A stretch of 59,973 nt of DNA from a virus, in IMG/VR virus record IMGVR_UViG_3300045988_079322; one strand, 5' to 3'. Positions 336 through 50,035 of this stretch are shown one piece after another. Position 1 is the first letter of the stretch. Every line of letters begins with the position of its first letter. The position numbers and the translations under genes were made by a program. Below the pieces are notes generated by a model, which worked only from the letters and a program-made list of their open reading frames with translations, was not told the DNA's origin and did no database searches.

Positions 336-2102
336 TTGCCTAAATGTATTTTAGCTGAATAGGGTGGAAAAGGTGGAGGTTCTCTTTCTCTTATAAAAAT
401 TGAAGTAACCACTCCCCCTACTAAAACGAGCTATCTTGCTGGTGACACTTTTAATCCCGCGGGAATGGTAGTCACCGCATCTTACGGCATGGACGGCGTT
501 ATTGTAACAACAGCAGAAGTAACTGGGTATCAAGTTACTCCAAACCCTTTAACTGATGGGGTTACTAAAGTAACAATTACTTACTCTGAATTAGGAGAAA
601 CTTGTTAGACCACTCAAGACATTACTGTTATTCATAAACTTCTTAGTATTTAGGTTACTACTAACCCAACTAAGACAACTTATGAATATGGAGACACTCT
701 CCAAACAACAGGAATGGTAGTTACAGCAAGTTATTCTGATAGTACATCATCCGCGGTTACCGGGTATAGTTGCTCTCCAACGTCATTAACTGCGGTTGGC
801 ACCTAGAAAATTACTGTTTCTTACACAGAAAATGGAGTAACTCAGTCTGCTTCTTTCAGTGTTACTGTTGAAAGAAAATCGGTGCCGAAACCAACATGGA
901 AGAATAATCTTACCTATACTGGTAGTAGCCAATCAGTAAGTGGTGCTTCCTATTGGAATAACTTTAATACCACTTATATGACGATTGGCGGGACAACTTC
1001 CGCGACTAACGCTGGAACCTATACTGCTACTTTCACACTAAATAGTAATTATAGATGGGCTGATGGAACTACATCAAATCTTGATGTAAACTGGACTATC
1101 AATAAAGCTGCTGGGACTTTAACAGTAAGTCCAACTTCTGTAGCTCTTGATGGAGATAACTATAGTGCAGGCGTAAAAGTTACTATTACCCGTCCTGGAG
1201 ATGGAGCTATTAGTTATAGCCCAACTAGCGTTTCTGGCTTAACTTTATCTTTAAGTGGGAACGTTCTTACAATTAAAGGCGACGGTAGTACAGCTATTTC
1301 TTCTACAACTATTACTATCAAGGTTGCAGCAGGAACTAACTATACGGCTCCAAGTAATAAAACTGTTACAGTAACAGCTAGCTATTGGGAGTGGGGATCT
1401 GAAACTGCTGTTGGTGATGCTAAATGGTGGGCTGGATTAAAAACATGGGCCGCTAAGGCATCATCTGGAGAGCGACAAAATTGCGTAGGTAAGACTAAAA
1501 GAGTAAGTTTATCATCTTCTGTTTTAGGTGGTAATCAAGTATTAATGAGATGCGTTGGCGCAGATTAGGATGGAACAGGAACTTTAGCTTTTAATGCTGT
1601 CTCCGCTCTTCCTAATTCTACAGATTTTGGTAGCAATGCAGTATGGATTGGATCAACTGCTAGAGATCTATGTCAAGATTTCTATAACCGCTGTAGCGCG
1701 AAAGATTCTATTAAGACAGTAAAGAAGGGTACTTGTCCTAGTACAAATAGCTCTAGAAATGGTTCTGTAACCTATAATGATGAAACAGTATTCTTATTAT
1801 CCGAAAGAGAATACGGATTAGATTCTTACTCTCCTATCTCCACTTCAAACAGTACTACCTCTAAAGCAGAGTGTACTCAAGGTTATAATGCTGCGTATAG
1901 TTACTACATAAGCAACTCTAGAAGGGTTATGTACTTAGGAGATGCAAACGGTAATCCAACTAGCTCATATGCGTATCAATGGGAGAGGTCCCGTTACTAC
2001 TCCAACTCGGACTACGTTTGCTCTGTCGACACCGATGGATCTGCGAACCGCAACCGCTACGCCAACAGCGGCGGGCTCGCGCCGGCTTTCGTTATCGGAT
2101 AA
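336..2102 (+). CDS. DGR target protein, about 588 aa if read from TTG 336: N-terminal bacterial Ig-like (Big_2-type) repeats and a C-terminal variable region. About 6 in-frame TAG codons are read as sense. Start is uncertain; the ORF-track fragment is 882..1568.
   Basis: AGGAGG Shine-Dalgarno at 322-327, 8 nt before TTG 336. A single frame runs to TAA 2100-2102. Repeated motifs TKITVSYTENGVTQSASFSVTV and TKVTITYSELGET are typical of Ig-like domains. The VR lies in the last 40 codons. Confidence 0.55.
1987..2085 (+). repeat. DGR variable region (VR), 99 bp, inside the 3' end of the target gene
   Basis: Aligns base-for-base with 2710-2808. All of about 22 mismatches fall where the downstream copy has A. 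Ends with the GC-rich GGGCTCGCGCCGG, which resembles an IMH element. Confidence 0.85.
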
Positions 2103-2183
2103 CACAATAAAATAACAATTCGGGACAGTTAAGATTAAATTGTCCAACTAAAATTTTATATATTCAAGTGAGGGAGATTTTAA

Positions 2184-2522
2184 ATGTCTGTAAAAGTAAA
2201 AGATAGACACATATCAAAGCAAGATTGTCTTTATAAAGCACGCGACCTAATGGGATATATTTTAGTCTTAACTCGTCCTAGAGAATATGATAAGGATGGA
2301 AAACAAATTTGTAAGCCTGGACTGCTTGGAGAGGGTCAACCTCTTCAAGCGTTCGGGTACGATATAATTAAGTGCGGAAAGGGCTTATATGCTTGCTGTT
2401 ATGAGGCATGTAAGATAAACTTGAAAGACAAAGAAACCCTTGCAAAGAGAAATGACTATCATAATAAAGCACTAGAATATTGTGATAGTATATTTCGACA
2501 AATCGACCTATGTATTTATTAG
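2184..2522 (+). CDS. Small basic protein (112 aa) in the Avd (accessory variability determinant) position between target/VR and TR
   Basis: Intact ORF. Its size and synteny match the usual target-avd-TR-RT arrangement of a DGR. No sequence motif was recognised by eye. Confidence 0.4.
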   Translation: MSVKVKDRHISKQDCLYKARDLMGYILVLTRPREYDKDGKQICKPGLLGEGQPLQAFGYDIIKCGKGLYACCYEACKINLKDKETLAKRNDYHNKALEYCDSIFRQIDLCIY

Positions 2523-2709
2523 TATGCTCAGAACAGCAAAAAGAAAAGACGCTCTTTTGAACATCTAGCTAGATTGACAAAGAGAGTAAAAGAGTCAATC
2601 CAAGATAGAAAAAATAGAGATAAACTTATAACAGAGCATAGATATTCAGCTCCTAAGAGATATAGGAGAGGTCGATAATATTTTTCTACGGTTAAGTTCT
2701 GTATCTTTC

Positions 2710-2808
2710 GGTCCCGTAACTACAACAACTCGAACAACGTTTGCAATGTCAACAACGATGGATCTGCGAACAACAACAACTACAACAACAGCAACGGGCT
2801 CGCGCCGG
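2710..2808 (+). repeat. DGR template repeat (TR), adenine-rich (AAC/AAT repeats)
   Basis: 99-bp near-identical copy of the VR. Every TR/VR difference sits at a TR adenine, the hallmark of A-specific mutagenic retrohoming. The 3' end GGGCTCGCGCCGG is shared, then the sequences diverge (IMH versus IMH*-like). Confidence 0.85.
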
Positions 2809-3119
2809 ATTAGATGGAGCTATCATGTTGCGAGTTAAGCTGCGGAGCAGCGCAAACGAGCAACGCCTAAATAGTACCCCGGAGTATATTATTATCCATC
2901 TAATTAAGGTTTACTCTGGATTGCACTCACTTTATGTGGGGAAGAGATTGAGAGACCATTAAAGAGCTTTGCTCTACAACTATCGAATAATATACTATAG
3001 GTAGATCTGCCTTTTCATCTAAGGAGAACTTAACCATTTCACTGAAAAAGTGGATAAAGTAAGACTGTAGACGTGGAGCTCGAGTAGCTACCACTATAGC
3101 TACATGATAAGGAGAAAGT

Positions 3120-4337
3120 ATGTCTGAAATAAAACAAGATACTGCTTTCGAGCGTTTTTGTAGTTTTGACGCTATGTATGAGGCGTCTTATAAGGTATGT
3201 CGAAACGTTCGATGGAAAGATAGTACAATTAATTTTGAAGAGAATAGGATAGAAACAATTTTAAAAACAGAAGCTGACCTGCGAGCGTGTGAATACGAAC
3301 AGCTTGTGTTTAGTTGTTTTTCGATAATCGAACGAGGCAAACCAAGAGATATAAGAGCGTGTCATATCAACGACAGACTGGTACAAAATGCGTTATGTGA
3401 ACAAGTTTTGCTACCAGAATTAACTCCTAGATTTATCTATGATAATTGTGCAACCCTAAAAGGAAAGGGAATAGACTTCGCTCTGGAAAGAGTTAAGAAA
3501 CATCTCCAATAGGCTCATAAAGAGTATGGGTTAGGAAAAGATTTTTATGGATTAAGAATTGATATACAGAAATATTTTGATTCTATTGACCATGAATCTT
3601 TAAAGAAAGCAGCTAAACGGCTAATAAAAGATAAACTTGTTTATTAGTTATGTTGTTACTTGATAGATACATTTTCTTTTAAGCTAACAAAAGACACTTC
3701 GCCTATACCCGGTAAAATATATTACACAAGTAAGCGACACAAGTATGAAAGAGTTAATGTTACTCATTTCTAGCCTGGTCGTAAGTATTATGAATATGAA
3801 AGAAAGAGCCTGGGATTAGGAAGTCAAACGTCACAATTATTCGCATTGCTAGCATTGAACGAAATTGACCACTTCATAAAAGAAGAGTTACATATTAAGT
3901 ATTATGGTCGTTATATGGATGATTTATACTTGCTCCATAATGACAGTAAATACTTGGCCGAATGTGAGAAACAAATAGAAATTCGCTTAAATAAACAAGG
4001 ATTAAAGATGAATAAGAAGAAAACTACTATCACTAGAATTTCTCCTATTCACGCAGATGGCGAACGCCACGCTCCTTTTAAATATTTAAAGTGGAATTTT
4101 CATCTCACAGAAACTAATCATATAATACAACTTCCTTTCAAGAAAAAAGTAGCTCATCAGCGCAGAAAACTAAAGAAAATGTAGGCTTTATGGTTAGATA
4201 ATAAAATTTCAACTGAAGAAGTTTAGAAATCTTATTAGGGCTGGAGGGCGCATATTTCTAAAGGAACTTGCTTTTATATAATTCAGGACATGGACAATTA
4301 TTTTCGTTCATTATTCAAAGGAGTTGAAATAAAGTAA
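3120..4337 (+). CDS. DGR reverse transcriptase, about 405 aa, with 6 in-frame TAG read as sense
   Basis: RT motifs appear in order: FYGLRIDIQKYFDSIDHESL (motif A-like), GLGSQTSQLFALLALNEIDHF (motif B-like) and YGRYMDDLYLL (YxDD, motif C). The motifs continue uninterrupted across TAG codons at 3510, 3645 and 3771. TAA at 4335-4337. Confidence 0.85.
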
Positions 4338-4999
4338 TGTATATTCTATTAAATAGAGAGAATATAGTAGTTGATATTCTTTCAGAAGCACGTTACATTA
4401 AACTGCAATCCTCAAATGGTATTGTCGTTGCCTGCGAGGAAGAAGAGGGAACTGGGGTTATCGGCTCAGATAGTGATACTCATTACACTCTAGTCAAAGC
4501 CGATGTATTAAATCAACCTAATGCTGTTACAGTATTAGAGTTGGAAACAATTCCATCAAACGTCATTCCTAACTATTCAAAGTATAATCAAGAAGATGGT
4601 ACTTTCATCGCTGATTTAGATTAGGCAAAATATGATAAACAAGAGGAAAACAAGAAACTATTCGCAGAGTATCTTGCTACCCACCCGTTAACTTGGGTCG
4701 ATGGAAAAGAATATGGAATTACGTAGGAGGACCAATCTGAGATTAGCTTAAATCTCAATCAATTCTAGGTGGCTGTAGCTGCTGAAGTAGAAAATCCTAC
4801 GCTTGAGTGGCACGCTCGACACGAAGAGTGTGTACCATGGACTTTAGAGCAATTATCCGCTCTAAGTTTAGCTATTTCTAATGCGGTATATCCAAAATAC
4901 CACTTAATGCAAGAATATAAAACCTAGATATTTGGAGCTAATTCAATAGATGAATTAAAAGCTATTGAATTGAGTTATGAAGACACAGACAGCGAATAA
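4337..4999 (+). CDS. Tail-fibre-associated protein; the C-terminal part resembles the DUF4376/XkdW-like domain (tentative). About 220 aa with 4 in-frame TAG.
   Basis: ATG overlaps the RT stop (TAATG). A coherent reading frame passes through TAG codons at 4622, 4727, 4769 and 4925, ending at TAA 4997-4999. Confidence 0.4.
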
Positions 5000-5435
5000 A
5001 AATATAATTCTATTCGTAGTAGGAGGAACTCTATATTACAGTATAGAGTTCCTCTATAAAACTTTTATTAGCCTTGGAGTTTGTCATTGGTCTATGTTTT
5101 TGCTAGGTGGCTTATGCTTTCTATTAATTGGACTAATGAATGAGAATATTCTTTGGGAAGAATCTATCTTAACTCAAGGAGTAAAAGGATCTTTAATTAT
5201 AACTGCTTTAGAATTAATTTTTGGATTAGTTTTAAATATAAGACTAGGTTTAGGTATTTGGGATTATTCTAACATTCCACTTAACTTTATGGGGCAGATT
5301 TGCTTGCCCTTCTCTATTGCATGGTTCTTCTTGAGCCTTTTAGCAATAGTGTTAGATGATTACCTTAGATGGAAATGGTTTGGAGAAGAAAAACCGCATT
5401 ATCACTTATACAGTAGACCTCCTTGCGAGGAATAA
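4977..5435 (+). CDS. Small integral membrane protein, 152 aa, about 4 hydrophobic helices
   Basis: Intact ORF. Strongly hydrophobic segments, for example LFVVGGTLYYSIEFLY and LLGGLCFLLIGL. Lies immediately before the convergent bidirectional terminator. Confidence 0.45.
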   Translation: MKTQTANKNIILFVVGGTLYYSIEFLYKTFISLGVCHWSMFLLGGLCFLLIGLMNENILWEESILTQGVKGSLIITALELIFGLVLNIRLGLGIWDYSNIPLNFMGQICLPFSIAWFFLSLLAIVLDDYLRWKWFGEEKPHYHLYSRPPCEE

Positions 5436-5436
5436 A

Positions 5437-5480
5437 AAAAATAGGGAGAACCTTAATTAAAAGGTTCTCCCTATTTTTTT
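5437..5480. terminator. Bidirectional intrinsic terminator between the convergent plus and minus gene blocks
   Basis: Perfect hairpin AAAAATAGGGAGAACC-TTAATTAAAA-GGTTCTCCCTATTTTT with A/T runs on both sides. Confidence 0.6.
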
Positions 5481-6262
5481 TATTTTACATCAATAATAAC
5501 AATAGCAATATCGCTTTCTGGTTTATCTTTTGTGTAGAAAGTGATTCCAGATCCTACAGTTGCATCAGCATGATCAATTTTACTATATTCCTCTAAATTA
5601 GAAGTATAAGTAATGATAGGTGGCACATTTCCCGCTTTTCCGCAAGTTAAAGCAGTATTAGAGTATGTCTATGTATACATATCTCCGTTCAATACCCATG
5701 ATGCCGCGGCAAGAGTGGTTGTATAAGCTACAGATGTGCTACCAGTAATTTGGTTATCTGTTTCTGACTTGCTATATACATCCAAATTAGTTCTGGCTTG
5801 CGCGGCTGTCGTGCCTCCAGTTCCTCCAACCTAGATTGGAAGTGTACCAAATGTAGGTGCACCCGCAGTAATCGCGTATAAAGCACCAGCACCTTGTAAA
5901 CCAGCCACACCATTTTCCGCATTTCCGATTACTAAACTGCCGGCTGCAATTTCAATCATTTTTAATGCTTCTGTTCCATTTCCTACTAGCAAAGCATTAA
6001 CAGTTAATGTATCATGTCCAGTTCCACCCTACGCTACAGTAGCAGTCATATTTTTAAGAAAAATGTCGTCAATATCAATTTCAGTAACATTATTCTTTAA
6101 AACTTGAGCAGCATAGGCATTGACCTGTAGACGTCCGCCCTCTATATTACTTACATCAATAAATAAATTTCCTGTGTCCTCGCAGAAATAGGCGTATCCT
6201 TCATGAAGAGGTACATCATTAAGATCCTCTTCTGCGCCTTTAAAAATCTTAAATAAAGCCAT
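5480..6262 (-). CDS. Tail fibre or structural protein, about 260 aa, 3 in-frame TAG
   Basis: AAAGGAGGG Shine-Dalgarno followed by ATG 6260-6262. Translation continues through TAG at 6029, 5831 and 5669 in a single frame to TAA 5480-5482. Confidence 0.5.
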
Positions 6263-6295
6263 TTTAGGCCCTCCTTTATACTCTCTAAATATAAA

Positions 6296-8206
6296 TTAAG
6301 GTATTAAATCACTAAAACTTCCCCAAGATAGTAATTCTTCAATCTATGTTGCAGAATATGTCTATCTATCCTTATTTGTAATAGTTCCACCTATTAAGCT
6401 ATTAATATAGTGAATACTGTAAGTTTTATTTGTTACTTCTCCACCATCTTCACTATTATAACTATTGTCAATAAGATTAGAAATACCACCGGTTAACTAA
6501 ACTCTTCCCCACACTCCATCGGCAGCCTTATAATACCAATAAGAAGTTTCTTGATTGGTTTCATATTCTACCCATGTAATAGAGAAAATATCTTCCGCAC
6601 TAATTTCTCCGTCATAGTTTTCTTCAATATAATTTACACCATTCTATAAAGAATCTTTTAGTGTATCTGTCTCATTTATTGTATAGCTCTTAACAATATT
6701 AAGAGCTTCACCAACAGGGCCTTTTAGGTTGCCGGAATTTTTCTCCCATGTACCAGAAGATTTTAATTCATATATATTTCCGGTTTCTGTATTTAAATAT
6801 AAATCTCCAGCTTTCGCACCCTCAATAACAGTAGATGTCGTTGAATCAGAAATCTAAGTTCCAGAGTATAATTTTGATCCTCGAGGAATCTTAAAATCAA
6901 TATTCATAGTATCATCTGCTGTAATTTTATTGGATACAGAACCGGTTTCATCAATTCCAACAAAAGCAAATGAAGTTGTATATTTAACTGCGGAAGGCAG
7001 TCCAAAAACTAGTTTCCAAGCGGTTTGCTCCTCGTTGGTAAACTCCCTTGTAACTGTAGGAATTGTCGGCTCAAACTCAGAACCTTTATCTGTATATGGC
7101 TTTAATTCTGTAACTTCTATAGTAGGAAGAGGGGACTAAATACAAGCTATATACTAAAAAGTGCAAGTGGTTCCAGTTTTATTTATTACTTTATAAATAA
7201 AACCAGTTGGTGCATTAATGTAATAATCACCAACATTATAATCCGCAAAAGAATCATTAGCTTCTTCGTAAGTCCCTTCTGTCCTCTCGCCTAATAACTC
7301 GCCATAATAAAACTTAACCGCTTCTGGTAAACTAAATTTCAATACTGGCACATTAATATTCGAATCATCTATTATTACAGATGGGTTCTCCTCGGGTCCC
7401 ACTACCGTAGTTTCTGGATCTCCCATCACCTAACTTTGAGGCAAGAAGAAATTAATAATTGGATTGTTTATATCATCAAAATTTATTTCAAATCTAGGTT
7501 TTTCATTAGCATCTAAAGTTGTAGTAATACCTTCCTATAATGACTAAGATACAGGTAGATAAAACTTAATTGCCGGTTTGTTGATAGAATAATCTCCTGA
7601 AACTTCTAAAGATACTCTTGGATTTTCACCTACATCTAATAATTCTACTAATGCAGTATTAATTACCTAAGATTGCGGTAAGGACAACTTTAAGCTAGGA
7701 TTATTTATATCGGTTGTGTCTAAAGACGCTTCTGGAAGTTCATTACAATCCAGAATAGTAGTCTCTCCTAACTAGATATTCTAACTCTATGGTAACTGAA
7801 AAGTAAGCCAAAGTCTATCTAGATCGGTATTATCCCAAACCACGTTTGGATCTTCATCTGCATCCAAGACTTCTGTGTCATTTAAGCTAATTCTTGGTGT
7901 ATTACCAGTCATGGAAGCTATCATCTTATAGTATAGGCCGCCCGCAGATCCGCTTCCATCTTTATCATTATAACATTTTTGCCAAAGAGTAGAGTTATAG
8001 CTTTTCCCATAATTCTATAAATCTTCATTCTTATAAATATCATAGTTTGTATCGCTTGGCAAACCATATGATACAACAACGAGATCACCTGGGAAGATAG
8101 AAGATGTCCAACCCTTTGATAAATCTCTATCCATCTAATATTTGCTAGTAAAGATTTCCTTAATATCAAAATCTCTACCTTTAGGTCCTCCATAGAAACT
8201 TTCCAT
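6296..8206 (-). CDS. Tail structural protein, about 636 aa, with internal tandem repeats; each repeat carries a TAG codon at the equivalent position
   Basis: GGAGGTG Shine-Dalgarno then ATG 8204-8206. Repeated units ...NPxLxFxLPQS-TAG-V... appear four times in the hand translation (not enumerated by coordinate). TAA at 6296-6298. Confidence 0.5.
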
Positions 8207-8236
8207 AGTTTGACACCTCCTTATACATAGATAAAA

Positions 8237-37151: not shown

Positions 37152-37163
37152 AGTTTTAAGTTT

Positions 37164-37628: not shown

Positions 37629-37651
37629 CTCTATAGCTACTTCCTTGGTAA

Positions 37652-39804: not shown

Positions 39805-41546
39805 ACCTCGCTCATAAACATAAAGTCTGAAAATCTTCTACTTTTACGCTTGCGTTTACTATCTTCTTCCTATTTAATATAATACAACCCATATTCAAGC
39901 GCAGAGAATTTATCTTTAGGCACGGATTTATTTGCTTGTTTCAAAATAATATTCACGCCTTCATTTTCTTCTCGCAAATTCAGCATTTCTTCTCTTAATA
40001 TAGAAGTTAAAGTGAACGGTTTTAAATATTCTGCCCGTTCTTCTGGTTTCATAGCCTAACCTTTTTTAGTACCAAGCAATTTATTTCTTGCGACTTTTTC
40101 ATCAATCAAAAATCTAAGTTTTCCTGCTCTTAATTGTGTCTAAACATTACTATGTGCCTCGGTATTAATAGGGGCGTTAGCCTTAATTTCATAAATAGCA
40201 TCATATTCCGTATTCTCTGTTCTAAATCGTTTATACTCACCATCTTCATCATTGGCCACACCAAAGTCAGGAAAAACTTCATTGGTATCAGGCACTATCT
40301 AAGGCTTAACCATATAATCCATCAATCCGGCGCCAAGGCCATTACCGTCGATTACAATAATCTTAGCCTTATAATTATAATATAATCTCTTTAACTTAAT
40401 TGCCTAGTCTTCAAAATGTTCATCGTCCATAGTATATATATTTACCAAAGACTTTATAGCAGGTCCTTGTGACTAAGGAGTTACCTTAAAGACACAAACA
40501 ACAGATTGACATTTCTTTCTACCTACATCAACAGAAAGAACATAATAAGCCTGTGCAGAAGATCTTCCAGACGATTCATATTCAGGCTAAAGAAGTTTTC
40601 TACTTCTATCAAAAGCATCTCCATTAAAGAAAGCATCTTCAACAGTTCCACTCCACTTAGATTCATACTCTCTATCGAATGAAGCTTCATTAAAAGTACC
40701 GTCCTATTTTAGTTCCTATACGAAATTGCGGGATTGCAATCCTACTAGTACAGGAATTCTCCATGTTCCGCCCATAACAATACTCTTTTCTGGTTCTAAT
40801 ATCATGCGTACAAGGAGAGTAATAAGTTTATTGTAGGGGAACGTATTCTTCCATCCCGCAGTAGTAACATAAATCTAGGATTTATTGAGTGTTTCCTCTT
40901 CATGAACAGAACCATCTAAACATCTTCTATCAACGTTCATCAAGGGAATTAAAACTTCGTTTAGAATATCTCCATCTACGCCGACGCACTCCTCAATAAG
41001 TCCGCCATGTCTACGTTTACCACGAGAAGATTCTCTAGCTGCTACGTTATCAAAGTAGGAGCCGTTTTTGAAGATATATTTACAATAATCTTTTCCTTCC
41101 TATGTCTTACCTCGTCTCCAATCAATTTCTCTTTGGAGCGCGGGGATTGCATTACATATTTCCTAGACTTTTTCTTTAGCAATTCCAGCTGCTTGTTCCT
41201 TTCCTCCAGAAGTAATGAATAACTTACATCCGGGATATAAAATACATCTACACATAAGCACCATTACAGAAAGAAATGACTTAGAATAAGCACGGGGGAA
41301 TACCATGTATACATACTTATACCGCATTGCGGCCCGCAAGAAAACTCTCTAGTAAAAATAAAAGTTAATTTCTTTTTTCCTAGTTTCATCCCCACCAGTC
41401 TGCAAGAAATCAATAAACATATCTGGATATTCTCTCCAAAAAGCTATATACTATCTTGCCGCGGGGATTATGGCTCGAACTCTTTCTTCTGAAAGACCAA
41501 TCTTTTTATTATTATTCGAGAGGTTTAATAAATCTTTTAATGCCAT
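39801..41546 (-). CDS. terL: Terminase large subunit, about 581 aa, about 12 in-frame TAG
   Basis: AAGGAGG Shine-Dalgarno then ATG 41544-41546. ATPase-like stretch ...KLFITSGGKEQAAGIAKEKV-TAG-EICNAIPALQREIDWRRGKT-TAG-EGKDY...SSRGKRRHGGLIEEC, and a C-terminal nuclease-like stretch IVIDGNGLGAGLMDYM. TGA at 39801-39803. Confidence 0.7.
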
Positions 41547-42720
41547 TACTAAACCTCCTTTAGTATGCTATTTAGCATCTCTTCATCCTTATCTCTTTCG
41601 GATTCTTTCATATCCTCATACTCTTGATAATCTTCTTCTGTTAATTCTGGATGTTCATAATTAAATAAATCTTCATCCTCATCGCTATCCTCAACATCAA
41701 TATTCGCTTCGCGCTCTTTATCTTTCACGATTTCTCTCAAAGAAGCCTCAATCATATTACCAAGATTCATTTCTTCTGTAACTAGAGTATGCGTATATTG
41801 CTACAAATCCTAAAGAGTTCTATCTACTTTATCCTATGGCCCATCAGTATAATATCTAGGAATAAATCCTTCTTTCTCACATAATGCTACCAGCTCGCCA
41901 ATAGAATCAACAAATTCGCCGGATTCTCCCTTATTCTAAGCGGCAGTGAACTTTCCGCTTTTCATTAAGCTATCATAGGCCTTCTACATTTTCTAAAAGC
42001 CATCAATATCTCCAGCATCAATTAACTAATTCGCTTTCAAACTAGTCTTGCATACCATAATAAGAGTATCTTTATGTCCAGCTCCCTAAATATCATATGA
42101 ACTCATCATATCCTTATAGAGCTACTCCATTCGCACTCTTTCTTCCCAAGAATAACCTCGACCCCATTTAAGACGAAGCATTAATTTATCTTCTTCTGTT
42201 AGCTAATCGCTAAAGTCATCTTCTTCCTCTTCTGGATCTTGATATTCTGGAGTTCCAACTGGAGCCTAAACATCTTCTAACTCCTTTGGTTTTGGCGGAG
42301 TTCTATCAATAGCTAATTGCTCTTGAATTTCATCCTCTGTAAATCCTTGAGCTTTCATATTAAGAACTTTTTTCTCAGTTGAATCCTTCTCTAGTGCCTC
42401 TGTATCTGCCCAAGTATATTTATTCCATTGTTTTAATTTCATTTTGGATAAATAGCGTCCAATAATAGTTAATCCAGTAACCTTTTTTGGATCTTTTCCA
42501 TACCTCTCTAATAAGCCATTCCACTCTTCTTTGATGTATGGAACATCAATTTCCTACAAAATCCACTTATATGTCTCTGGATTCCAGTTGTCTACGTGCA
42601 TCGTAAGACATTTCTTACAGACATCCATCTTTCCATCTGGAGGATATTTTTCTATATTCTTTGATGTATAAAACTATGTATCATCCATAGTTTTACCACA
42701 CTTTTTACAATAATGACTCA
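41546..42720 (-). CDS. Small-terminase-position gene or genes: TAG-rich coding region with an N-terminal CxxC...CxxC motif and a highly acidic C-terminus. Frame continuity unresolved.
   Basis: GTG 42718-42720 with AAAGAGG Shine-Dalgarno. ORF fragment 41549..41770 reads through TAG to TAA 41546-41548, overlapping the large terminase ATG. The two ends appear to lie in different frames. This may be a programmed shift, two genes, or a reading error. Confidence 0.25.
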
Positions 42721-42726
42721 CTATAA

Positions 42727-43785
42727 TCAACCTCTTTTCTTGTTACGACACTTCTTACAAATACTATATAAATTATCTTTACTTGTCTTATTTTTTGAAA
42801 AGAATTGATTATGAGCTGGCTTTAATTGCCCACACTTAGAACATTTTTTCATTGGATAATTTCTGTTTTTATACTACCAATATAAAAAATCCTCTAGGGC
42901 GGCTTCGGCTATCAATTTAGGAATTTTATTTCTCCATAAACTGGAGATATATTCCACGCTATATGTTTTTCCGAACTCTTCATTTAATATTTCCTATATC
43001 TCATTATTCTGCTTTTTATCAATCTTTAACTCAACAATTCGTAAATAGATTGGAAAATCCTCAAGAGCTTTATCGCATATCTCTTCAAACGCTTGAATTA
43101 GATACCACGTATCCCCATCGAACTAATCATAACTATCTTCTTTTAATTTTGAATAATTGCATAAAATAGCAGAAACTACATTTGGATCCATTAAGGAAAT
43201 ACCTTTAACGACTACTTCCTATCCATTAAGATAACTTTCATCATTAAGAGGTATATGTGTTCTTGTATTTCTTGTTAGCTTACAAGGAACTATAGGCTTT
43301 TGATATGCCTATTTAATAATATACTAATCTTTTCGCATTTCTATCAATGCTTTTTTCATCATATAAGCTTGTTTCGTTCCCGCGGCGCGTTTCAAGGCAC
43401 CTTCCCAAGCATTAATGGTTTCTCTTAACTATTTTAAACATGGTATAGAATCTAAATCTTTCTGTGTAATAGAAATCTTTGGCTAAAATATAACATTTTT
43501 ATTATCTGACATTAAACCATAAATGCCATCCTCGCCATTTTCCATCTATGAAGCGAGTCCCTCAAAAGAACATTCTCGTTTATTGACGGTGGCCATTCGG
43601 TTATCAGTCAATATGTTCTTCTCTTTCTTCTCTTGTTTCTCCATACATAGAACTAAATAATCTGCTAATACTTCTAAATAACCTGGAGTTAAATCAGGAT
43701 TTTCTGCGATTATTTTTTCGACAAGCGCCTTGCGCTCTTCGGGAGATTCAATCGTATAGTCTAATTTTATCATATACTGGTTCAT
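42727..43785 (-). CDS. First gene of the late operon, about 350 aa, 9 TAG, C-terminal Cys4 zinc ribbon (CSKCGQ...CKKCRNKK)
   Basis: Starts just downstream of the late promoter. Reads through TAG at 43546, 43483, 43429 and others to TGA 42727-42729. Confidence 0.35.
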
Positions 43786-43802
43786 CTCCTTTTTATACTC
43801 AT

Positions 43803-43831
43803 ATAATAACAAAAAAAAACTAGATTGTCAA
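43803..43831 (-). promoter_or_regulatory. Late-operon promoter: TTGACA-17-TATTAT with TGn
   Basis: Reverse complement of 43826-43831 is TTGACA and of 43803-43808 is TATTAT, with a 17-nt spacer. Confidence 0.5.
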
Positions 43832-43838
43832 ATCTTAT

Positions 43839-43867
43839 TTGACCAATGTTTTTTAAAATGGTATAAT
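43839..43867 (+). promoter_or_regulatory. Divergent promoter: TTGACC-17-TATAAT with TG
   Basis: TTGACC at 43839-43844 and TATAAT at 43862-43867. AGGGAGG Shine-Dalgarno at 43883-43889. Confidence 0.5.
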
Positions 43868-43900
43868 TTAAATATAATAAATAGGGAGGTTTTTAATAAA

Positions 43901-44239
43901 ATGTTTTTCGATACACCCTATTCTGAATTACCAAAACGAGCATAGTATTACTTTAACATTTTAATTATAAGCATAGCAGTATAGCCAGAAGTTCTAACAG
44001 ACATACTTGGACATAAAAACACTGTTGACTTATGGGATGTTCAAAATATCAATAATGCAAGACCAACGGCTTTGCATATTTATGCTTCATATAATTTAGA
44101 TAGAGATTCTGATTATGAAATATGTTGTATCCCACATTAGGTTTTAGAAATAACGCCTAATAACAAAATATCATTCTATGATATGATTGATTATGATACT
44201 GATGATCCATGGGGGCTAGAACCAGATGCAATAGATTAA
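43901..44239 (+). CDS. Hypothetical protein, 112 aa, with 3 in-frame TAG
   Basis: ATG after AGGGAGG. Coherent frame through TAG at 43943, 43982 and 44123. TAA at 44237-44239. Confidence 0.4.
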
Positions 44240-45017
44240 CATAAAAGAATATTTTAAACAATAGAAAGATGAATTGCGGCAGTCCGATGTCAAGCCATCA
44301 TTGACCATAATTGATGCAACTAACGGGGATGCCGGAAATTAGATTTATATATAGAAAAAAGTAGACGACTTTGATGAATTAGGATGGCCAGTAAGCGTGA
44401 TTAAAGTTCCAGAACACTGGACTCCCGCAGATTTAAATAATTACATAAATAGTATAGATACTGATTGTATTATAGCACAAATGCCACTAAGAGATTCATT
44501 GAGTTCTTTTTCTATTGATGTAATTCCTACGATAAAAGACTGCGACGGTTTAACTTCTTCTACTCTTGTTTTACCGGCAACGGTAAGAGGAATAGTAGAC
44601 TATCTTGATGACTGTGGTTTTAAGTATGAAGGTAAAAGTGCTTTAATATTAGGTAGAAGTAATATAGTTGGTAAGCCAATGGCGAAAGAGTTGTTGGCGA
44701 GAAATATGACTGTATCTATCTGTCACAGTAAAACAAATGTAAATGCGAAGCTTTATTTAGCAAGAATAGCAGATTTAGTAGTATCCGCAGTTGGAGATTT
44801 TACTTTGACAAGAGAGGCTTGCCCTCACGCTATTGTTGTTGATGTTGGTATTCGTAGAAATTAGGCGAATTTTATTCAAGGCGATTTTGTTGAACTTGAA
44901 GATATTGCAAAGAGAAATGAAGTGTGGTCAACTCCTGTGCCCGGAGGGGTGGGATTATTGACTAGATTGGGGTTGATGAAAAATTGCTTATAGTTAGCGA
45001 AACAGGCGCGAAGATAA
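44226..45017 (+). CDS. folD: FolD-like bifunctional methylenetetrahydrofolate dehydrogenase/cyclohydrolase, about 263 aa, 6 in-frame TAG
   Basis: N-terminal ...GDAGN-TAG-IYI-TAG-KK... aligns with the FolD SNPASQIYVASKRK motif. Central GKSALILGRSNIVGKPMA matches the Rossmann-fold GxSxxVGxPM. C-terminal VVDVGIRRN-TAG-ANFIQGDFV...STPVPGGVGLLT matches VIDVGINR...TPVPGGVGPMT. TAA at 45015-45017. Confidence 0.75.
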
Positions 45018-45376
45018 TGAAATTCTCAGAAGATTTTGATAATTATGCTAGAGAGGTTCTTCATATTGAAAATCCTTTTCGAGAATTTTATCGTACACAG
45101 GATTCAACATTTAAGACTAATATTGATGGCAGCATAACAGTAGATATGGAGAAATCCAGAGAAATATACAGAGAAACAAAAATAAATAGAGAAGAATGGG
45201 TAAAGCTGAGGAATAGATATATCGCAGAAAGAATATTGCGAGAACTCGGGTATGAAGTCCTATTAGCTTCGTCTTATTTTGAGGATTACCCTGATGCAAT
45301 TCCCTGTGATGGAGCTACAGGACAGTGTTTACTAGATTGTAGAATAAAGGGGTGTAAATATGAACCCATGCATTGA
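45017..45376 (+). CDS. Hypothetical protein, 119 aa
   Basis: ATG overlaps the FolD stop (TAATG). Intact, TGA stop. Confidence 0.45.
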   Translation: MKFSEDFDNYAREVLHIENPFREFYRTQDSTFKTNIDGSITVDMEKSREIYRETKINREEWVKLRNRYIAERILRELGYEVLLASSYFEDYPDAIPCDGATGQCLLDCRIKGCKYEPMH

Positions 45377-45575
45377 TTATTGTTATCTTAGATTGCATCA
45401 ATAGTATGATCCAATTAGATGCGATGATTCATGCGAATATGCAAAAGTAATAAAAGAAAACAAAGAGTTAAAGTAGAAGATCGAGGAATTAAAAACTCAA
45501 CACACTTTATTTGAAAAATAAAATAAGACAATTATTTAATTTTGCCCAACGGCATTTTTATAAAAGGAGGCCGCG

Positions 45576-46340
45576 ATGACAAAACAAGAGCGCGCAATCA
45601 AGGCACGAGCGCATTATGAAGATATTAAAACTAGACTTGCCGCAAACACTAAATTATCTATCGAGCGCACATATGTATATAGTCCAGATTCTTTTACACA
45701 GCATGAATCCGGCAATCAGAAACCAGCTTTTACTCTAACAGATATGGATAGCGTATCTTGTCTATTCAACTTATCTGACAATGGTAGAACAGCAATTCTT
45801 AACTATGCCAGTTATAAAAGTCCTGGTGGTTTCTTCCTAGAAGGTAGTCCTGCGCAAGAAGAGGCTCTGTGTCATGAATCCAATCTTTACCCTATTCTTC
45901 TTGCTTTTGATGGGACGTATTACGCATGGAATCGGCAGAGGTTAAATAAGGCTTTATACTTGAATAGAGCGCTGTATTCTCCTAGTGTAGTATTCGAGCG
46001 GAATGACAAACAAAAGAAAGCAGATGTTATAACTTGCGCGGCCCCGAATTTCCGAACGGCGCATAGATACCAGAGTGTGAGTAAAAGCGAGAATGATAGA
46101 GTTCTTGAAAATCGAATTCACTTTATGTATCAGATTGCTGAGGAAAACGGTGTGGAAAATCTAGTCGCGGGAGCTTGGGGTTGTGGAGTTTTTATGCAGG
46201 ATCCGTACACGGTCGCAACCTTACTCATAGGCGCAGCACGCAATTATAATATTCCAAATATTTATTTTGCAATTCCTGACCGCAATTCCCAGAATTTTAG
46301 AGCATTTTTGAAAGCAGGTAAAGAATGTATAAACAGTTAA
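45576..46340 (+). CDS. Macrodomain protein of the bacterial PARG-like DUF2263/TIGR02452 type, 254 aa
   Basis: AAAGGAGG Shine-Dalgarno. Motif SPGGFFLEGSPAQEE fits the PARG signature GG-x6-8-QEE. No TAG. Confidence 0.65.
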   Translation: MTKQERAIKARAHYEDIKTRLAANTKLSIERTYVYSPDSFTQHESGNQKPAFTLTDMDSVSCLFNLSDNGRTAILNYASYKSPGGFFLEGSPAQEEALCHESNLYPILLAFDGTYYAWNRQRLNKALYLNRALYSPSVVFERNDKQKKADVITCAAPNFRTAHRYQSVSKSENDRVLENRIHFMYQIAEENGVENLVAGAWGCGVFMQDPYTVATLLIGAARNYNIPNIYFAIPDRNSQNFRAFLKAGKECINS

Positions 46341-46762
46341 TTATAGCTAGAAAAGATTTAAATATGTCTCCGGGTAAGCTAGCTGCGCAAGTTTCCCATG
46401 CTTCTATTGCTTTTCTTTTGGAAAAGATTCTTTGGGGAAGCAAAGAAGTGGTTCGGGAAAGAGATGGCATTATGTATCATATGGATATAAGTCTCGATAC
46501 AGACTTATTCCATGATTGGATAACTGGAGCAGAAACTAAAGTTGTTTGCCGCGCGAAGAATAAAGATGATTTATTGCGAGCGGTCGAAGCAGCTAAAGAG
46601 CTTGGTATGGAGGAGTATAAAGATTACTTTTTGATTTATGATGCTTGCAGGACAGAGCTGGAAAAAGAGAGTCCTGAAGGGACTCTCACTTGTATTGGAT
46701 TTAGACCAATGGAAGCTGAGGAGATTGATAAAATTGGGAAGAAATATCAATTATACCATTAA
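46325..46762 (+). CDS. Peptidyl-tRNA hydrolase, PTH2 family, 145 aa
   Basis: N-terminus LIIARKDLNMSPGKLAAQVSHASIA matches the PTH2 signature (xVVRxDLxMxxGKxAAQxxHA). Overlaps the end of the macrodomain gene by 16 nt. Confidence 0.65.
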   Translation: MYKQLIIARKDLNMSPGKLAAQVSHASIAFLLEKILWGSKEVVRERDGIMYHMDISLDTDLFHDWITGAETKVVCRAKNKDDLLRAVEAAKELGMEEYKDYFLIYDACRTELEKESPEGTLTCIGFRPMEAEEIDKIGKKYQLYH

Positions 46763-46785
46763 GGGATATTTTTGCCCTAACTGTG

Positions 46786-46825
46786 GAGAAAAGATGAAAG
46801 GTTAAAAGTTTAGCCTTTCATCTTT
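46786..46825 (+). terminator. Intrinsic terminator after the macrodomain/PTH2 operon
   Basis: GATGAAAGG-n12-CCTTTCATC followed by TTTTTTT. Confidence 0.6.
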
Positions 46826-47027
46826 TTTTCGTTATTGAGATTGAAAGTGCGATTTAGATTTTGAAATGGCGTGGCAGAACGAATTTGCGAAAAAATTTCC
46901 AGTTTTTCCCAAAATACACGCCCCTCTTTCACATGGTAAAGTATTGAAGTGTAGTTGGCCTCTTTCGCTCGCTAAAGTACGAAAGCAAGAAAGCACGCCC
47001 CTAAAGGAATACGCGCGCGTAAAGGGT

Positions 47028-47068
47028 TTGTGCAAACTGCACAACAAGATGTTATTTATTTTGTGCAA
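47028..47068. promoter_or_regulatory. Cluster of three TTGTGCAA / TGCACAA half-sites (operator-like)
   Basis: TTGTGCAA at 47028 and at 47061, TGCACAAC at 47038. The same octamer as in the cassette operators. Confidence 0.4.
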
Positions 47069-47098
47069 AAGAGAGAGAAAGAAATTTCAAAAAAACTA

Positions 47099-47127
47099 TT
47101 GACAAGTGAGCGTTTTGGTGGTAAACT
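47099..47127 (+). promoter_or_regulatory. Promoter: TTGACA-17-TAAACT
   Basis: Consensus -35, 17-nt spacer ending GTGG. Confidence 0.5.
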
Positions 47128-47194
47128 GGACTTGTCCAGTAGGACAGAGACAAAAGCACAGCACTTTGAAAATTAAAAAATTTCAAAAAAGGTA

Positions 47195-47223
47195 TTGACA
47201 AACTGCTAAAGGTTTGATACAAT
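47195..47223 (+). promoter_or_regulatory. Promoter: TTGACAAACT-17-TACAAT (class A consensus)
   Basis: TTGACA at 47195, TACAAT at 47218. Confidence 0.6.
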
Positions 47224-47276
47224 ACAGACAGAACAAAAGAGAATCACACCACAAAAAGAAAGGGAGTCAAAAGAGT

Positions 47277-47651
47277 ATGAAAAAGATTGATTTTACCAAT
47301 GAAGATCGAGCCATTATTATGGAGTATATGGCGGCTAAGATGGCTAAGTCTGCGGCGGAGGCGGCGGAGAAAGCAGCTAAGGCTAAGGCTAAAGAGCTAT
47401 TCTCCAGATTAGGTAAGGCTTTTAAGGCTACGGACAAAACAAGTTATCTATATGGCACGGTACAAATGCAGGGTAAGGCGAAAGCGGTGGTATATAAAGA
47501 AACTACCGCAAAAGGAACGGTTGACTGGAAAGCCTATGCTATGGCATTAGGTGGAACGGAAGCCGAAGCAGAGCAATTCCGCAGACCTTCCGATATTCGT
47601 ACCTCTTTTGATTGGGCGACAAAGACCCAAGAAGAAGAAATTAGAGGATAA
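47277..47651 (+). CDS. Hypothetical early protein, 124 aa, Ala/Lys-rich N-terminus
   Basis: AAAGGGAG Shine-Dalgarno then ATG 47277. TAA stop. Confidence 0.5.
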   Translation: MKKIDFTNEDRAIIMEYMAAKMAKSAAEAAEKAAKAKAKELFSRLGKAFKATDKTSYLYGTVQMQGKAKAVVYKETTAKGTVDWKAYAMALGGTEAEAEQFRRPSDIRTSFDWATKTQEEEIRG

Positions 47652-47660
47652 CAGTTTATA

Positions 47661-47696
47661 AACCCTGCCTTGCAAAACACAAGGCAAGGCAGGGTT
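47661..47696 (+). terminator. Hairpin terminator
   Basis: AACCCTGCCTTG-n12-CAAGGCAGGGTT. Confidence 0.45.
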
Positions 47697-47726
47697 ATAA
47701 TAATTAAAAGAAAGGGGTATACTATA

Positions 47727-47873
47727 TGTATCAATTACAGGTTTTAGCCAATGAGAAAATGCGCTATTATGAACCATCCACCCTTTCAATGGCAAGATGG
47801 AAAGCCAGTCACGAGATAGTCAATCCCAATCATTGGATTGTAGATTTATCCAGTGGAGAAATCGTAGATTAAA
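47727..47873 (+). CDS. Micro-ORF, 48 aa
   Basis: AAAGGGG Shine-Dalgarno then ATG 47727. TAA at 47871-47873. Confidence 0.3.
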
Positions 47874-47918
47874 AAGAAGCTGACCTAACGGCTATACGGG
47901 GAGAAAGGATAAAAGACT

Positions 47919-48221
47919 ATGAACAATTATATTAAGTGGTTCGTTGGGCCTACTTTTAGAAAGCATGAATTTATTAAACTTTTGCGGTATAAGATGAATG
48001 TGCGTTCCGCAGAGGTAGAGGACGGCATCATCTTAGACCTGGATGCTTTTAATGCCATGCGAGTGGCCTATATGCCACACTGGGCTTATATCAATAGAAA
48101 GTTTATCAATAGCAATCTGCATACCAGAATTGCAAGCGAAGATGAATATAAGATTGCTATGGTTGGAGATACAATCGGTACTGAATGGGTTAAAGAACAG
48201 GAGGCAAAGAAATGGAAATGA
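47919..48221 (+). CDS. Hypothetical protein, 100 aa
   Basis: Intact ORF after GGAGAAAGG. TGA stop. Confidence 0.45.
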   Translation: MNNYIKWFVGPTFRKHEFIKLLRYKMNVRSAEVEDGIILDLDAFNAMRVAYMPHWAYINRKFINSNLHTRIASEDEYKIAMVGDTIGTEWVKEQEAKKWK

Positions 48222-48364
48222 GAATTATTAAGCGGATAGGAGGCGGCATTTGTGCCGCTCTCCTACTCTGGACAGTTCTTAGTTGGGCTGATATAGTGGC
48301 GGATAACTGTGAGCCAAACCCACAGCACAGCGAATATAATATGTTCGTTCTCATGACTAAATAA
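48218..48364 (+). CDS. Micro-ORF, 48 aa, hydrophobic N-terminus
   Basis: ATG overlaps the preceding TGA (ATGA). TAA stop. Confidence 0.3.
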   Translation: MRIIKRIGGGICAALLLWTVLSWADIVADNCEPNPQHSEYNMFVLMTK

Positions 48365-48376
48365 TAGGAGGAAAAA

Positions 48377-48610
48377 ATGTATAGAGGGACTTATATCGAC
48401 GCCATGGGCCGCAAGCGCAGAGAGATGGGATATTTCAGTCTTAATAAGCCCACTCTGAATAAACTCCATATACCAGTAATTGTCCAAGCGAGAGATAAGA
48501 CAAGTGCGGCGAATAAAATCAATAGGAAATATAAATTGCGTATAAGTCCCAGCAATCTGCGGGAGGTGCCGATGGGCACGGGCTATCTCATGGAAACCAT
48601 GGAGCTGTAA
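48377..48610 (+). CDS. Hypothetical basic protein, 77 aa
   Basis: AGGAGG Shine-Dalgarno then ATG. Confidence 0.45.
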   Translation: MYRGTYIDAMGRKRREMGYFSLNKPTLNKLHIPVIVQARDKTSAANKINRKYKLRISPSNLREVPMGTGYLMETMEL

Positions 48611-48687
48611 AGGAATAATACTTGACTGGCAATCTACACAAAGATTGCCAGTCATTTTTATGCACTTTTCCATATTGACTTTTCGCC

Positions 48688-48720
48688 GGGCCGCCAGCGT
48701 GCGCCGCGGCCCGAATTTTT
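48688..48720 (+). terminator. Cassette copy 1: GC-rich hairpin terminator
   Basis: GGGCCGC-n11-GCGGCCC followed by AATTTTT. Confidence 0.5.
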
Positions 48721-48795
48721 ATTTATTCGGCAATTTCAACAATTATATGACCGAAAGTTTGTGCAATTCGACGAAAGTTTTTCTCCCGAAATTAC

Positions 48796-48824
48796 TTGAC
48801 ATTCCTTTTCCCATGTGTTATTAT
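48796..48824 (+). promoter_or_regulatory. Cassette copy 1 promoter: TTGACA-17-TATTAT with TGT
   Basis: Preceded by TTGTGCAA at 48749-48756. Confidence 0.55.
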
Positions 48825-48877
48825 ATACTTGTCCAAAGGGACAGGTCACAAAAAGAATTTGAAAGGAAGTAAAAAAA

Positions 48878-49117
48878 ATGACTTTAGATATGGTTGCTTG
48901 GTTACTTTCTCCGCTTGCAGAAGATACTATGTTCTTTGACGGGGAGGGATTCGAAATTATCAATAAGAATACCCAAGCTCATTACCATGAATTACCTGAT
49001 GGTAGAATAACTCTGGGAGGAGACGTAATCGAGGTATCTAAGGAATGGGTTCTGGGACTTCAGGTAACCGACATTGAGGCAAGAGATAACAATTTAATCA
49101 TTTATGTAGATGGTTAA
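48878..49117 (+). CDS. Hypothetical protein, 79 aa
   Basis: Intact, after GGAAGT Shine-Dalgarno-like sequence. Confidence 0.45.
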   Translation: MTLDMVAWLLSPLAEDTMFFDGEGFEIINKNTQAHYHELPDGRITLGGDVIEVSKEWVLGLQVTDIEARDNNLIIYVDG

Positions 49118-49179
49118 GAAAACTTGCGGGAGTGGAGGCCACAAACCTCTACTCCCCACGATAAAAAGGAGGAATAAAT

Positions 49180-49395
49180 ATGATTGCTGTTATTAAATTT
49201 GAAAGTGCAGAAAAGTCTGTGGAGTTTGGAAACACAATTTGTAATATGGCTGGCTGGTGTTTGGGTCATCCTCTCAATTCCAATGCTACCGGCTGTGTTT
49301 GTACACTTGATTTTAATACCGGCGACAAGCAAGATAGAGCCTTATATAATTATCTGCTAAAAATTGGAGCTTTCGAGGAGGTGGAACTAAAGTGA
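49180..49395 (+). CDS. Hypothetical protein, 71 aa
   Basis: AAAGGAGG Shine-Dalgarno. Confidence 0.45.
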   Translation: MIAVIKFESAEKSVEFGNTICNMAGWCLGHPLNSNATGCVCTLDFNTGDKQDRALYNYLLKIGAFEEVELK

Positions 49396-49510
49396 GTATT
49401 GAGCGTTTACCGCATACATATCCTATCGGTTCCACTGTTTGGACAAATAAGGGATATGGCACAGTTCTACTTCACATTGGTAAATACCATCTGGTTTGGC
49501 TACAGAGATT

Positions 49511-49546
49511 AGGGCTGGCGTAATGCCGGCCCTATTGATTTTTTCA
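49511..49546 (+). terminator. Intrinsic terminator
   Basis: AGGGCTGGC-GTAAT-GCCGGCCCT followed by ATTGATTTTTT. Confidence 0.5.
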
Positions 49547-49597
49547 AAAAAATATATTATAATAATTATAGAAAAATAAAGAAAGGAGTTTTTCTAA

Positions 49598-49714
49598 TGA
49601 CCTTAGAAGTGCTGAAAGCACTCGCGGTTATTTTGGAGTTCTGTTTGAACTAGGATTCTTGCAAGAATTGTCCTATGTCTCAGTTCTGCCAGAAAATGCC
49701 TTGCGAGTGGTAAA
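49598..49714 (+). CDS. 38-aa Cys-rich micro-protein with one in-frame TAG
   Basis: AAAGGAG Shine-Dalgarno then ATG 49598. ...EFCLN-TAG-DSCKNCPMSQFCQKMPCEW, TAA stop. Confidence 0.3.
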
Positions 49715-49801
49715 TGTTCCTTCCGATTGTTCTAAATCGGCGATTCCCGTGATGGAGTCGTTTTTCGCACGAGCCTAGGTCACTAGAATTTATTTATCAA
49801 A

Positions 49802-50035
49802 ATGCAAGAAACTACTTTCTCTCGCAAATTGGATTCAAGTGGTAGAATTATGATTCCGATTCGTTTGCGTGAACAAATGGGACTTACTTCCGGTTAGGAA
49901 TACTATTTCACTACTATGGTAAAAGATGGCAGAAAATACATCTGCATTGACTGCGGATCGGTTGATTCCTCACTTGAAGAAGCTATGAAAATTATCCAAG
50001 CAAACGGATTAAAGATTGTTGAAAATGCCGATTGA
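49802..50035 (+). CDS. AbrB/MazE-family (swapped-hairpin) DNA-binding protein, 77 aa, interrupted by one in-frame TAG
   Basis: RKLDSSGRIMIPIRLREQMGLTSG-TAG-EYYFTTMVKDGRKYI matches the AbrB/MazE consensus (GRVVIPIELRRxLGIxEKDxLEI). TGA stop. Confidence 0.5.

Follow-up and report, generated by a model that had tools for sequence, protein, structure and literature searches.

TAG as a sense codon, predicted to encode glutamine, across 45 kb of a phage genome

We describe a stretch of phage DNA (IMG/VR record IMGVR_UViG_3300045988_079322; 59,973 bp, 36% G+C; the whole of it is called the window below) in which the genes of the first 45 kb are read through in-frame TAG codons and end at TAA or TGA. 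Apart from these recoded genes, the window contains a second group that the standard code can accommodate. Alignments with related phages settle the predicted meaning of TAG as glutamine, and genomes of the same species carry a tRNA with the anticodon CUA that could decode it. From sequence comparison it is very probable that the window is part of a siphovirus-like phage of ~147 kb that infects Bacillota of the human gut, is distant kin of phAss-1 and of SPbeta-like Enterococcus phages, and uses code 15. The features discussed are collected in Table 1.

Open reading frames and homology across in-frame TAG codons

An earlier note, made by reading this sequence alone, had proposed that TAG is a sense codon throughout the late module and that TAA and TGA are the real stops. 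To quantify the effect of each stop codon, we used the share of positions 1-45,400 that lies under open reading frames (ORFs) of at least 100 aa. This coverage was 28.5% under code 11 and 97.3% with TAG as sense, compared with 30.3% with TGA as sense and 53.8% with TAA as sense. Reading TGA as an amino acid brings no gain like that of TAG; the effect is specific to TAG. The note had reasoned that equal coding density under tables 11 and 15 would speak against its proposal, and the densities found are very different. The longest ORF under the standard code was 465 aa, but when only TAA and TGA were taken as stops the longest frame reached ~2,900 codons. The TAG-sense stop-to-stop frames tiled the minus strand tightly from 5480 to 43827; on the plus strand they occupied 243-5435 and 43682-45376. 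In-frame TAGs were present in most of them.

The genes ending by position 45,020 comprise 14,311 codons, which include 323 in-frame TAGs but not a single TAA or TGA, whereas TAA and TGA together amount to 7.9% per triplet in the two off-frames of the same genes. At that rate a frame of 2,905 codons without either triplet cannot be a product of chance, and the count of 323 against zero excludes both chance and general decay. TAG makes up 49% of the Gln codons (323/657) in the recoded block; for individual genes the share reaches 79%. TAA and TGA were thereby shown to be the only reliable stops in the window, and the note's central claim was borne out by the coverage and by homology that is unbroken at TAGs. 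The TGA triplets that it had cited as gene ends fared unequally: those at 39801 and 10725 are true ends at overlapping ATG junctions (the TGA of the 929-aa tail or baseplate gene, at 10725-10727, overlaps the ATG of the next gene), whereas those at 14020 and 8237 stand outside the reading frame and close no gene.

Homology was followed across the TAGs in the proteins with recognisable families. The portal matched phrog_2739 over residues 34-499 without a break, and this match crosses each of the ten TAGs that the protein has when begun at its ATG. Profile matches of the large terminase covered both halves of the protein, crossing its TAGs, as expected from the note's description of a gene continuous through them. 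The reverse transcriptase (RT) of a diversity-generating retroelement (DGR), likewise predicted to read through its TAGs, matched RVT_1 (5.8e-16) in a region that spans three of them. The FolD protein matched both FolD domains in a profile search, and its alignment with solved FolD structures ran over residues 15-271 in one stretch with five TAGs crossed. The tape-measure-like gene, which the note had described as one frame across 8.7 kb, is indeed a single frame. It is homologous to a phAss-1 frame of ~3,150 codons that corresponds to the tape measure protein (TMP) published for that phage, 3,149 aa in length (PMC10607447), and it also aligns to a protein of 2,675 aa from Enterococcus phage EF1; the alignment segments with these two phages contain 11 to 33 TAGs each. 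An internally repetitive tail protein was said to carry TAG at the same position in each repeat, and we found TAG at a shared position of four LP(Q/X/V)S-X repeats.

These results bear on the possibility that the TAGs are true stops and that the block belongs to a decaying, pseudogenised prophage or to a defective element. Two points favour this reading, as the standard code breaks the genes into pieces and the window has no tRNA; however, the frames are interrupted by TAG alone, as the counts given above show, and homology runs on past every TAG. The note had held that alignments breaking at TAG would mean pseudogenes, but the matches of the portal, large terminase, RT, FolD and TMP continue across. 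Moreover, relatives keep the TAG positions or exchange them with Gln codons, and the same phage is found as complete contigs of ~147 kb in very many samples (2,464 index blocks). We consider the pseudogene explanation to be effectively refuted.

Two minor observations were made in the terminase region. The terminase matches two PHROGs whose function is unknown: phrog_15503 covers residues 5-218, and phrog_24618 covers residues 353-578. Gene calls that had been cut at TAGs may lie behind these two families. The gene at 41546-42742 ends in E-V-TAG-TAA, with a TAG directly before the true stop.

The residue at TAG and a tRNA with the anticodon CUA

The earlier note had left Gln versus Glu open, with Gln weakly favoured. 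Using the TAG-free major capsid protein of the window as a query, we collected 29 related IMG/VR loci with 55-97% identity. At the TAG columns of the window, the share of Q among relatives was 34-45%, compared with a background of ~3% (~12-fold), whereas E and K occurred at background frequency. The Q codons of the relatives at these columns were CAA more often than CAG, arguing that the Q signal is not merely a matter of one-step mutation between TAG and CAG. We also carried out a likelihood classification that determines which of the 20 residues has the substitution profile, drawn from the same alignments, that best predicts the TAG columns. Q was the best residue in all seven comparators, among them phAss-1 and Enterococcus phage EF1, which is cultured and uses the standard code, with a margin of 19-117 log units (natural log). 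Depending on the comparator, second place fell to K, E or H; none of W, Y and L ever ranked among the top residues. The rate at which relatives match with Q was 47% at TAG columns and 52% at CAA/CAG columns for L009, the closest lightly recoded relative, and 23% and 18%, respectively, for EF1, a phage with no in-frame TAG across 4,850 aligned columns.

Single sites were examined in the same light. One FolD TAG aligns to Q in the ASQ(T/V)YV motif, which is conserved, and the FolD peptides quoted in the note, this one included, were correct. At the first TAG of the LP-X-S-X repeat in the repetitive tail protein, two paralogous repeats carry Q. The note had also taken a TAG in an AbrB-like gene as a hint of Asp or Glu; this hint fails, for the other known allele of that gene has CAA, a Gln codon, at the position. 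On these alignments the predicted assignment of TAG to Gln can be regarded as settled.

A tRNA that could serve this assignment was found outside the window. tRNA and Rfam scans of the window detected nothing, and among relatives no tRNA was present in ~21 kb leftward of the window (close relatives) or in the first ~10 kb rightward of it. Two further rightward steps through same-species contigs led to an array of ~30 tRNAs and then to tRNA(CUA). The array lies on the strand of the TAG-free (early) genes and holds one tRNA with the anticodon CUA, ~28 kb past the right end of the window as judged from the offsets of the fetched loci. This tRNA is identical (100%) in all ten of ten same-species contigs of 137-294 kb and occupies the same locus in L133-L135. 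One carrier of it, ERZ24911583 NODE_11, also encodes a 157-aa protein of the window, and its alignment to the window shows 96% mean identity over ~7 kb. We infer that tRNA(CUA) resides on the same molecule as the window.

tRNA(CUA) folds into a canonical cloverleaf with the anticodon loop CUCUAAA, GG in the D loop, a GGTTCGAATCC T loop and G73, while U1 and U72 are unpaired. It is 83% identical to phAss-1 SUP2, a tRNA-Sup-CTA. The E. coli supE suppressor is a tRNA-Gln(CUA) that inserts Gln at UAG in competition with release factor 1 (RF1). Like supE, tRNA(CUA) keeps U35 and has G73 and a weak 1:72 pair; unlike supE, it is borne by a phage, serves a genome in which TAG has become an ordinary Gln codon, fixed at hundreds of positions, and shows no evident descent from tRNA-Gln.

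ARAGORN labels this tRNA as tRNA-Pyl, an identity that we rejected; the label reflects the anticodon alone. tRNA-Pyl is atypical, with a small D loop that lacks GG and no canonical T-loop sequence, and is accompanied by pyl genes, whereas the tRNA described here has the ordinary features listed above. The label does nevertheless belong among the few points that could be cited for a different residue (Glu, Lys, Trp, Tyr, Leu or pyrrolysine) at a sense TAG, together with the resemblance of the anticodon arm and the T arm of tRNA(CUA) to phage tRNA-Trp and with individual TAGs of FolD and the AbrB-like gene at which distant homologues have Asp, Glu or Lys. Such a residue is very unlikely, given the lead of Q over every runner-up in seven of seven comparators, the presence of E and K at no more than background frequency, the reciprocal exchange of CAA and TAG between the AbrB-like alleles (see below) and, in the case of pyrrolysine, the GG-containing D loop and the GGTTCGAATCC T loop.

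Other features were noted around the array. A ROOL RNA (RF03087, 350 bits) lies within it at L133:12032-12627, between tRNA-Gln(UUG) and tRNA-Gln(CUG), and a tRNA with an insertion of ~47 nt in the anticodon region, which ARAGORN missed, is at L133:12894-13013. Downstream of the suppressor, L140:11004-20318 encodes a DUF2828/DUF7788 protein, a metallophosphatase, an RNA ligase and an 811-aa protein similar to the major vault protein (PF11978), a gene group that looks like RNA repair or ribonucleoprotein machinery.

A putative switch of code and the genes that lack TAG

The window is sharply divided with respect to TAG. In the 45-60 kb block, TAG accounts for one of ~87 Gln codons, compared with 323 of 657 in the recoded block; 83 CAA or CAG codons were counted there, and the only in-frame TAG is that of the AbrB-like gene, which is also the sole exception between 45,017 and 50,035. 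At most one ORF in this block ends at TAG. That ORF (52228-52452) is given its read-through length, 87 aa, in a public gene call, and both the TAG and the 12-codon tail behind it are retained in six of six relatives.

Borges et al. put forward a post-transcriptional "late switch" model of recoding (bioRxiv 10.1101/2021.08.26.457843). If this phage follows their model, the host would read the standard code, and the TAG-free genes would be expressed before the recoded ones. The phage tRNA(CUA) would then accumulate, be charged with Gln by a host enzyme and outcompete RF1, and suppression, once on, would allow full-length packaging, tail, tape measure, DGR and FolD proteins to be made. The DGR itself is confirmed by the RT and by a template repeat (TR) and variable repeat (VR) that differ solely at template adenines. 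Since the DGR target gene and the RT both have in-frame TAGs, retrohoming would depend on suppression.

No switch during infection would be needed if the host itself read TAG as sense. Code-matched phages do exist for code-25 hosts (bioRxiv 10.1101/2021.08.26.457843), and the Bacillota host of the window's phage is a presumed one. Nevertheless, a TAG-sense host offers no reason for the partition into a TAG-free and a TAG-rich part, in which 15 kb with ~25 genes are nearly devoid of TAG while about half of the Gln codons in the neighbouring block are TAG. The phage also brings its own tRNA(CUA). In addition, the metagenome-assembled genome (MAG) bins that contain it are Oscillospiraceae and Eubacterium, and a survey predicts standard-code Firmicutes or Bacteroidetes as hosts of the alternatively coded gut-phage clades, those of code 25 excepted (bioRxiv 10.1101/2021.08.26.457843). 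We therefore judge a TAG-sense host to be highly improbable.

Several points weigh against the interpretation of TAG as a Gln codon that is switched on late by a phage suppressor. FolD, with seven TAGs, stands first in the rightward direction of transcription, which is otherwise TAG-free, and this clashes with a simple early/late split. No tRNA lies within the window, and the suppressor is known from same-species genomes, not from the window's own molecule; Logan contig SRR6474228_614 (L039), whose identity with the window is 100% over 11.5 kb, stops short of the tRNA array. The parent of tRNA(CUA) among the phage tRNAs is unclear, the best values being 0.70 for Leu(CAA) and 0.69 for Gln(UUG). 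A GGQ release-factor motif was absent from the 140 fetched sequences, outside which ~40 kb of the genome lies. Finally, we infer both the early/late timing for this phage and, from the alignments, the amino acid that tRNA(CUA) would carry.

The late module is not recoded in its entirety. The note's phrase "throughout the late module" holds insofar as recoding is found there, but five genes of the module have no TAG, and recoding extends to the DGR RT and FolD. The five genes contain 0 TAGs among 40 Gln codons, compared with 323/617 elsewhere in the block (Fisher p = 6e-13). We compared the clade in 12 comparators with a capsid identity of 36-97%, in which these genes are essentially devoid of TAG. 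The major capsid orthologues were TAG-free in 11 of the 12, the remaining one having a single TAG, and the orthologues of the 464-aa phrog_2729 protein and of the 229-aa protein likewise lacked TAG, whereas the portal, the terminase and other genes had TAGs in every comparator but EF1. The clade-wide absence of TAG from the capsid gene and two other genes of the virion module might mean that the capacity of the suppressor is limiting and is selected upon. Suppression that is slower or leakier than normal decoding would cap the yield of abundant proteins, which is the likely reason why the capsid gene and a few of its neighbours would remain TAG-free. As a separate observation, the G+C content and the CAG share of the TAG-free module genes are above those of the other late genes.

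The AbrB-like gene deserves mention for its single TAG. The note had reported a TAG in this gene at 49884; the gene does hold one, but at 49895. Two alleles are seen in public contigs, CAA25/TAG32 (that of the window) and TAG25/CAA32, which are reciprocal at sites seven codons apart. Either known allele has exactly one TAG; each change from CAA to TAG takes two substitutions. One could envisage that the gene serves as a sensor of suppression: a full-length DNA-binding regulator would appear only after the suppressor tRNA had built up, and transcriptional control would be tied to the code switch. That recoding is organised more finely than a plain early/late split, with the AbrB-like regulator as such a sensor and a TAG-free capsid set, is a speculative proposal that we hold to be rather unlikely. 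At the start of the TAG-free block, genes for a microbial-type poly-ADP-ribose glycohydrolase (PARG) and a PTH2 peptidyl-tRNA hydrolase are adjacent (45576-46762), and the latter may be relevant to translation during suppression.

Table 1. Positions of the blocks, genes and repeats in the window (Gln codons include TAG)
Feature	Position	Strand	Details
Recoded block	243..45017	both	323 TAG/14,311 codons; gene ends all TAA or TGA
DGR target gene, Big_3 and DUF6273 domains	243..2102	+	4 TAGs; VR at 1987-2088
DGR template repeat	2710..2811	+	18/18 VR differences at TR adenines
DGR reverse transcriptase	3120..4337	+	6 TAGs; RVT_1 Pfam match, residues 73-323
Internally repetitive tail protein	6296..8236 (also listed as ..8206)	-	16 TAGs
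Tail or baseplate protein, 929 aa	10725..13514	-	27 TAGs
Tail protein, 1,313 aa	14746..18687	-	32 TAGs
Tape-measure-like gene	18718..27432	-	one TAA-bounded frame of 2,905 codons; 104 TAGs
TAG-free gene	27528-28076		0 TAG/1 Gln codon
478-aa protein	28122..29558	-	25 TAGs (71% of its Gln codons)
Virion structural protein, 464 aa, phrog_2729	29616..31031 (also listed as ..31010)	-	0 TAG/15 Gln codons
TAG-free gene	34155-34748		0 TAG/3 Gln codons
Major capsid protein	34753..35811 (also listed as ..35805)	-	0 TAG/13 Gln codons
229-aa protein adjoining the major capsid protein	35825..36517 (also listed as ..36514)	-	0 TAG/8 Gln codons
Portal	37796..39469	-	phrog_2739; 10 TAGs after the first ATG, 12 in the stop-to-stop frame
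Large terminase	39801..41582 (also listed as ..41546)	-	14 TAGs; TGA end at 39801-39803
FolD	44193..45017	+	7 TAGs
Standard-code-compatible block	45017..59973	mostly +	~25 small genes, including PARG, PTH2 and AbrB/MazE-like
AbrB/MazE-like gene	49802..50035	+	one TAG at 49895 (codon 32)
ORF ending in TAG	52228..52491	+	TAG at 52450; read-through adds 12 codons to TAA

The phage and its relatives

The nearest published relative of the window's phage is phAss-1 (Babkin et al. 2023, PMC10607447; GenBank OQ749652), of the proposed Phassvirus group, listed by NCBI under "Caudoviricetes code 15 clade". It has 36 tRNAs, three tRNA-Sup-CTA genes and the TMP mentioned above, and belongs to a wider monophyletic group in which recoding occurs in some members but is lacking in others, Enterococcus phage EF1 among them (PMC10607447). 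The two phages have much in common: both are human-gut Caudoviricetes of ~136-148 kb with a giant tape-measure gene, with TAG-interrupted terminase, portal, TMP and tail genes beside a TAG-free major capsid gene, and with a large tRNA array that includes tRNA-Sup-CTA. A dedicated aminoacyl-tRNA synthetase was not reported for phAss-1. They differ in that one tRNA(CUA) was found in the window's species compared with three in phAss-1, in the presence of the DGR in the window's phage, and in its prevalence in public metagenomes, which is far above that reported for phAss-1. Their major capsid proteins are 51% identical, and a megablast search of 17 kb of the window against GenBank phages returned only a chance match of 33 nt, and none to OQ749652. 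The lack of a nucleotide match and the capsid identity place the window's phage outside the proposed genus Phassvirus but inside the wider monophyletic group.

EF1 resembles the window in having homologous major capsid (38% identity), portal, TMP and tail genes in the same order; unlike the window, it has no TAG in frame in the aligned columns and carries Gln at the window's TAG positions. With crAss-like, Lak and other recoded gut phages (bioRxiv 10.1101/2021.08.26.457843; PMC9523058) the window shares the concentration of TAG in structural genes (no lysis genes were identified in it), a separate standard-code block, the rarity of TAG as a stop and the variation in degree of recoding among close relatives; like them, its species carries a phage suppressor tRNA. 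It differs from these phages in its SPbeta/EF1-like lineage and presumed Bacillota host, in the recoding of the DGR RT and FolD, and in that no gene for release factor 2 was seen in the parts examined. Translation of TAG as Gln has been proven by proteomics in crAss-like phages (Peters et al. 2022, PMC9523058), whereas for the window's lineage it is predicted from sequence.

Earlier work has thus already described the phenomenon, the amino acid involved, the mechanism by way of a tRNA and the lineage itself, and no new principle emerges from the window. Its practical importance lies in annotation: with table 11, ~70% of the first 45 kb seems non-coding, and the terminase, portal and tape measure are shattered. 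Given the prevalence of the phage (~2,500 blocks, see below), correct annotation with table 15 matters to many gut-virome analyses. The points of possible value are the clade-wide exclusion of TAG from the capsid gene and its neighbours, the AbrB-like gene with one TAG, and the graded series of recoding. In this natural series, which leads from EF1 (standard code) through lightly recoded kin to the heavily recoded phage of the window, the spread of recoding and the genes that resist it can be followed.

The genome size of ~147 kb is based on contigs of 147-149 kb from ENA and from MAGs; contigs of 293 kb are head-to-tail dimers. One early protein of the window is listed in 2,464 blocks of the index of a public assembly collection. 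IMG/VR contig 093451 is 93-99% identical to the window and lacks ~33 kb, according to the positions of the fetched loci. Another locus, L032, was considered as 11.6 kb of upstream sequence but was rejected, as it is the window region on the other strand. A scan of GTDB genomes yielded only MAG contigs of 148-149 kb, with no host flanks and no sign of integration, and the assignment of the MAG bins to Oscillospiraceae and Eubacterium is a weak hint of the host.

A further observation concerns the left end of the window, directly upstream of the DGR target gene. A segment of 147 bp (56-202, within 42-217) lies between the perfect 14-nt inverted repeats AAAAAGTACACTTT and AAAGTGTACTTTTT, and contains a promoter-like site (205 to 177) along with a terminator that is strong (126 to 96). 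Relative to both flanks, the orientation of the segment is opposite to that in the window in all of 19 related loci; an invertible switch or a flip introduced in assembly could account for this.

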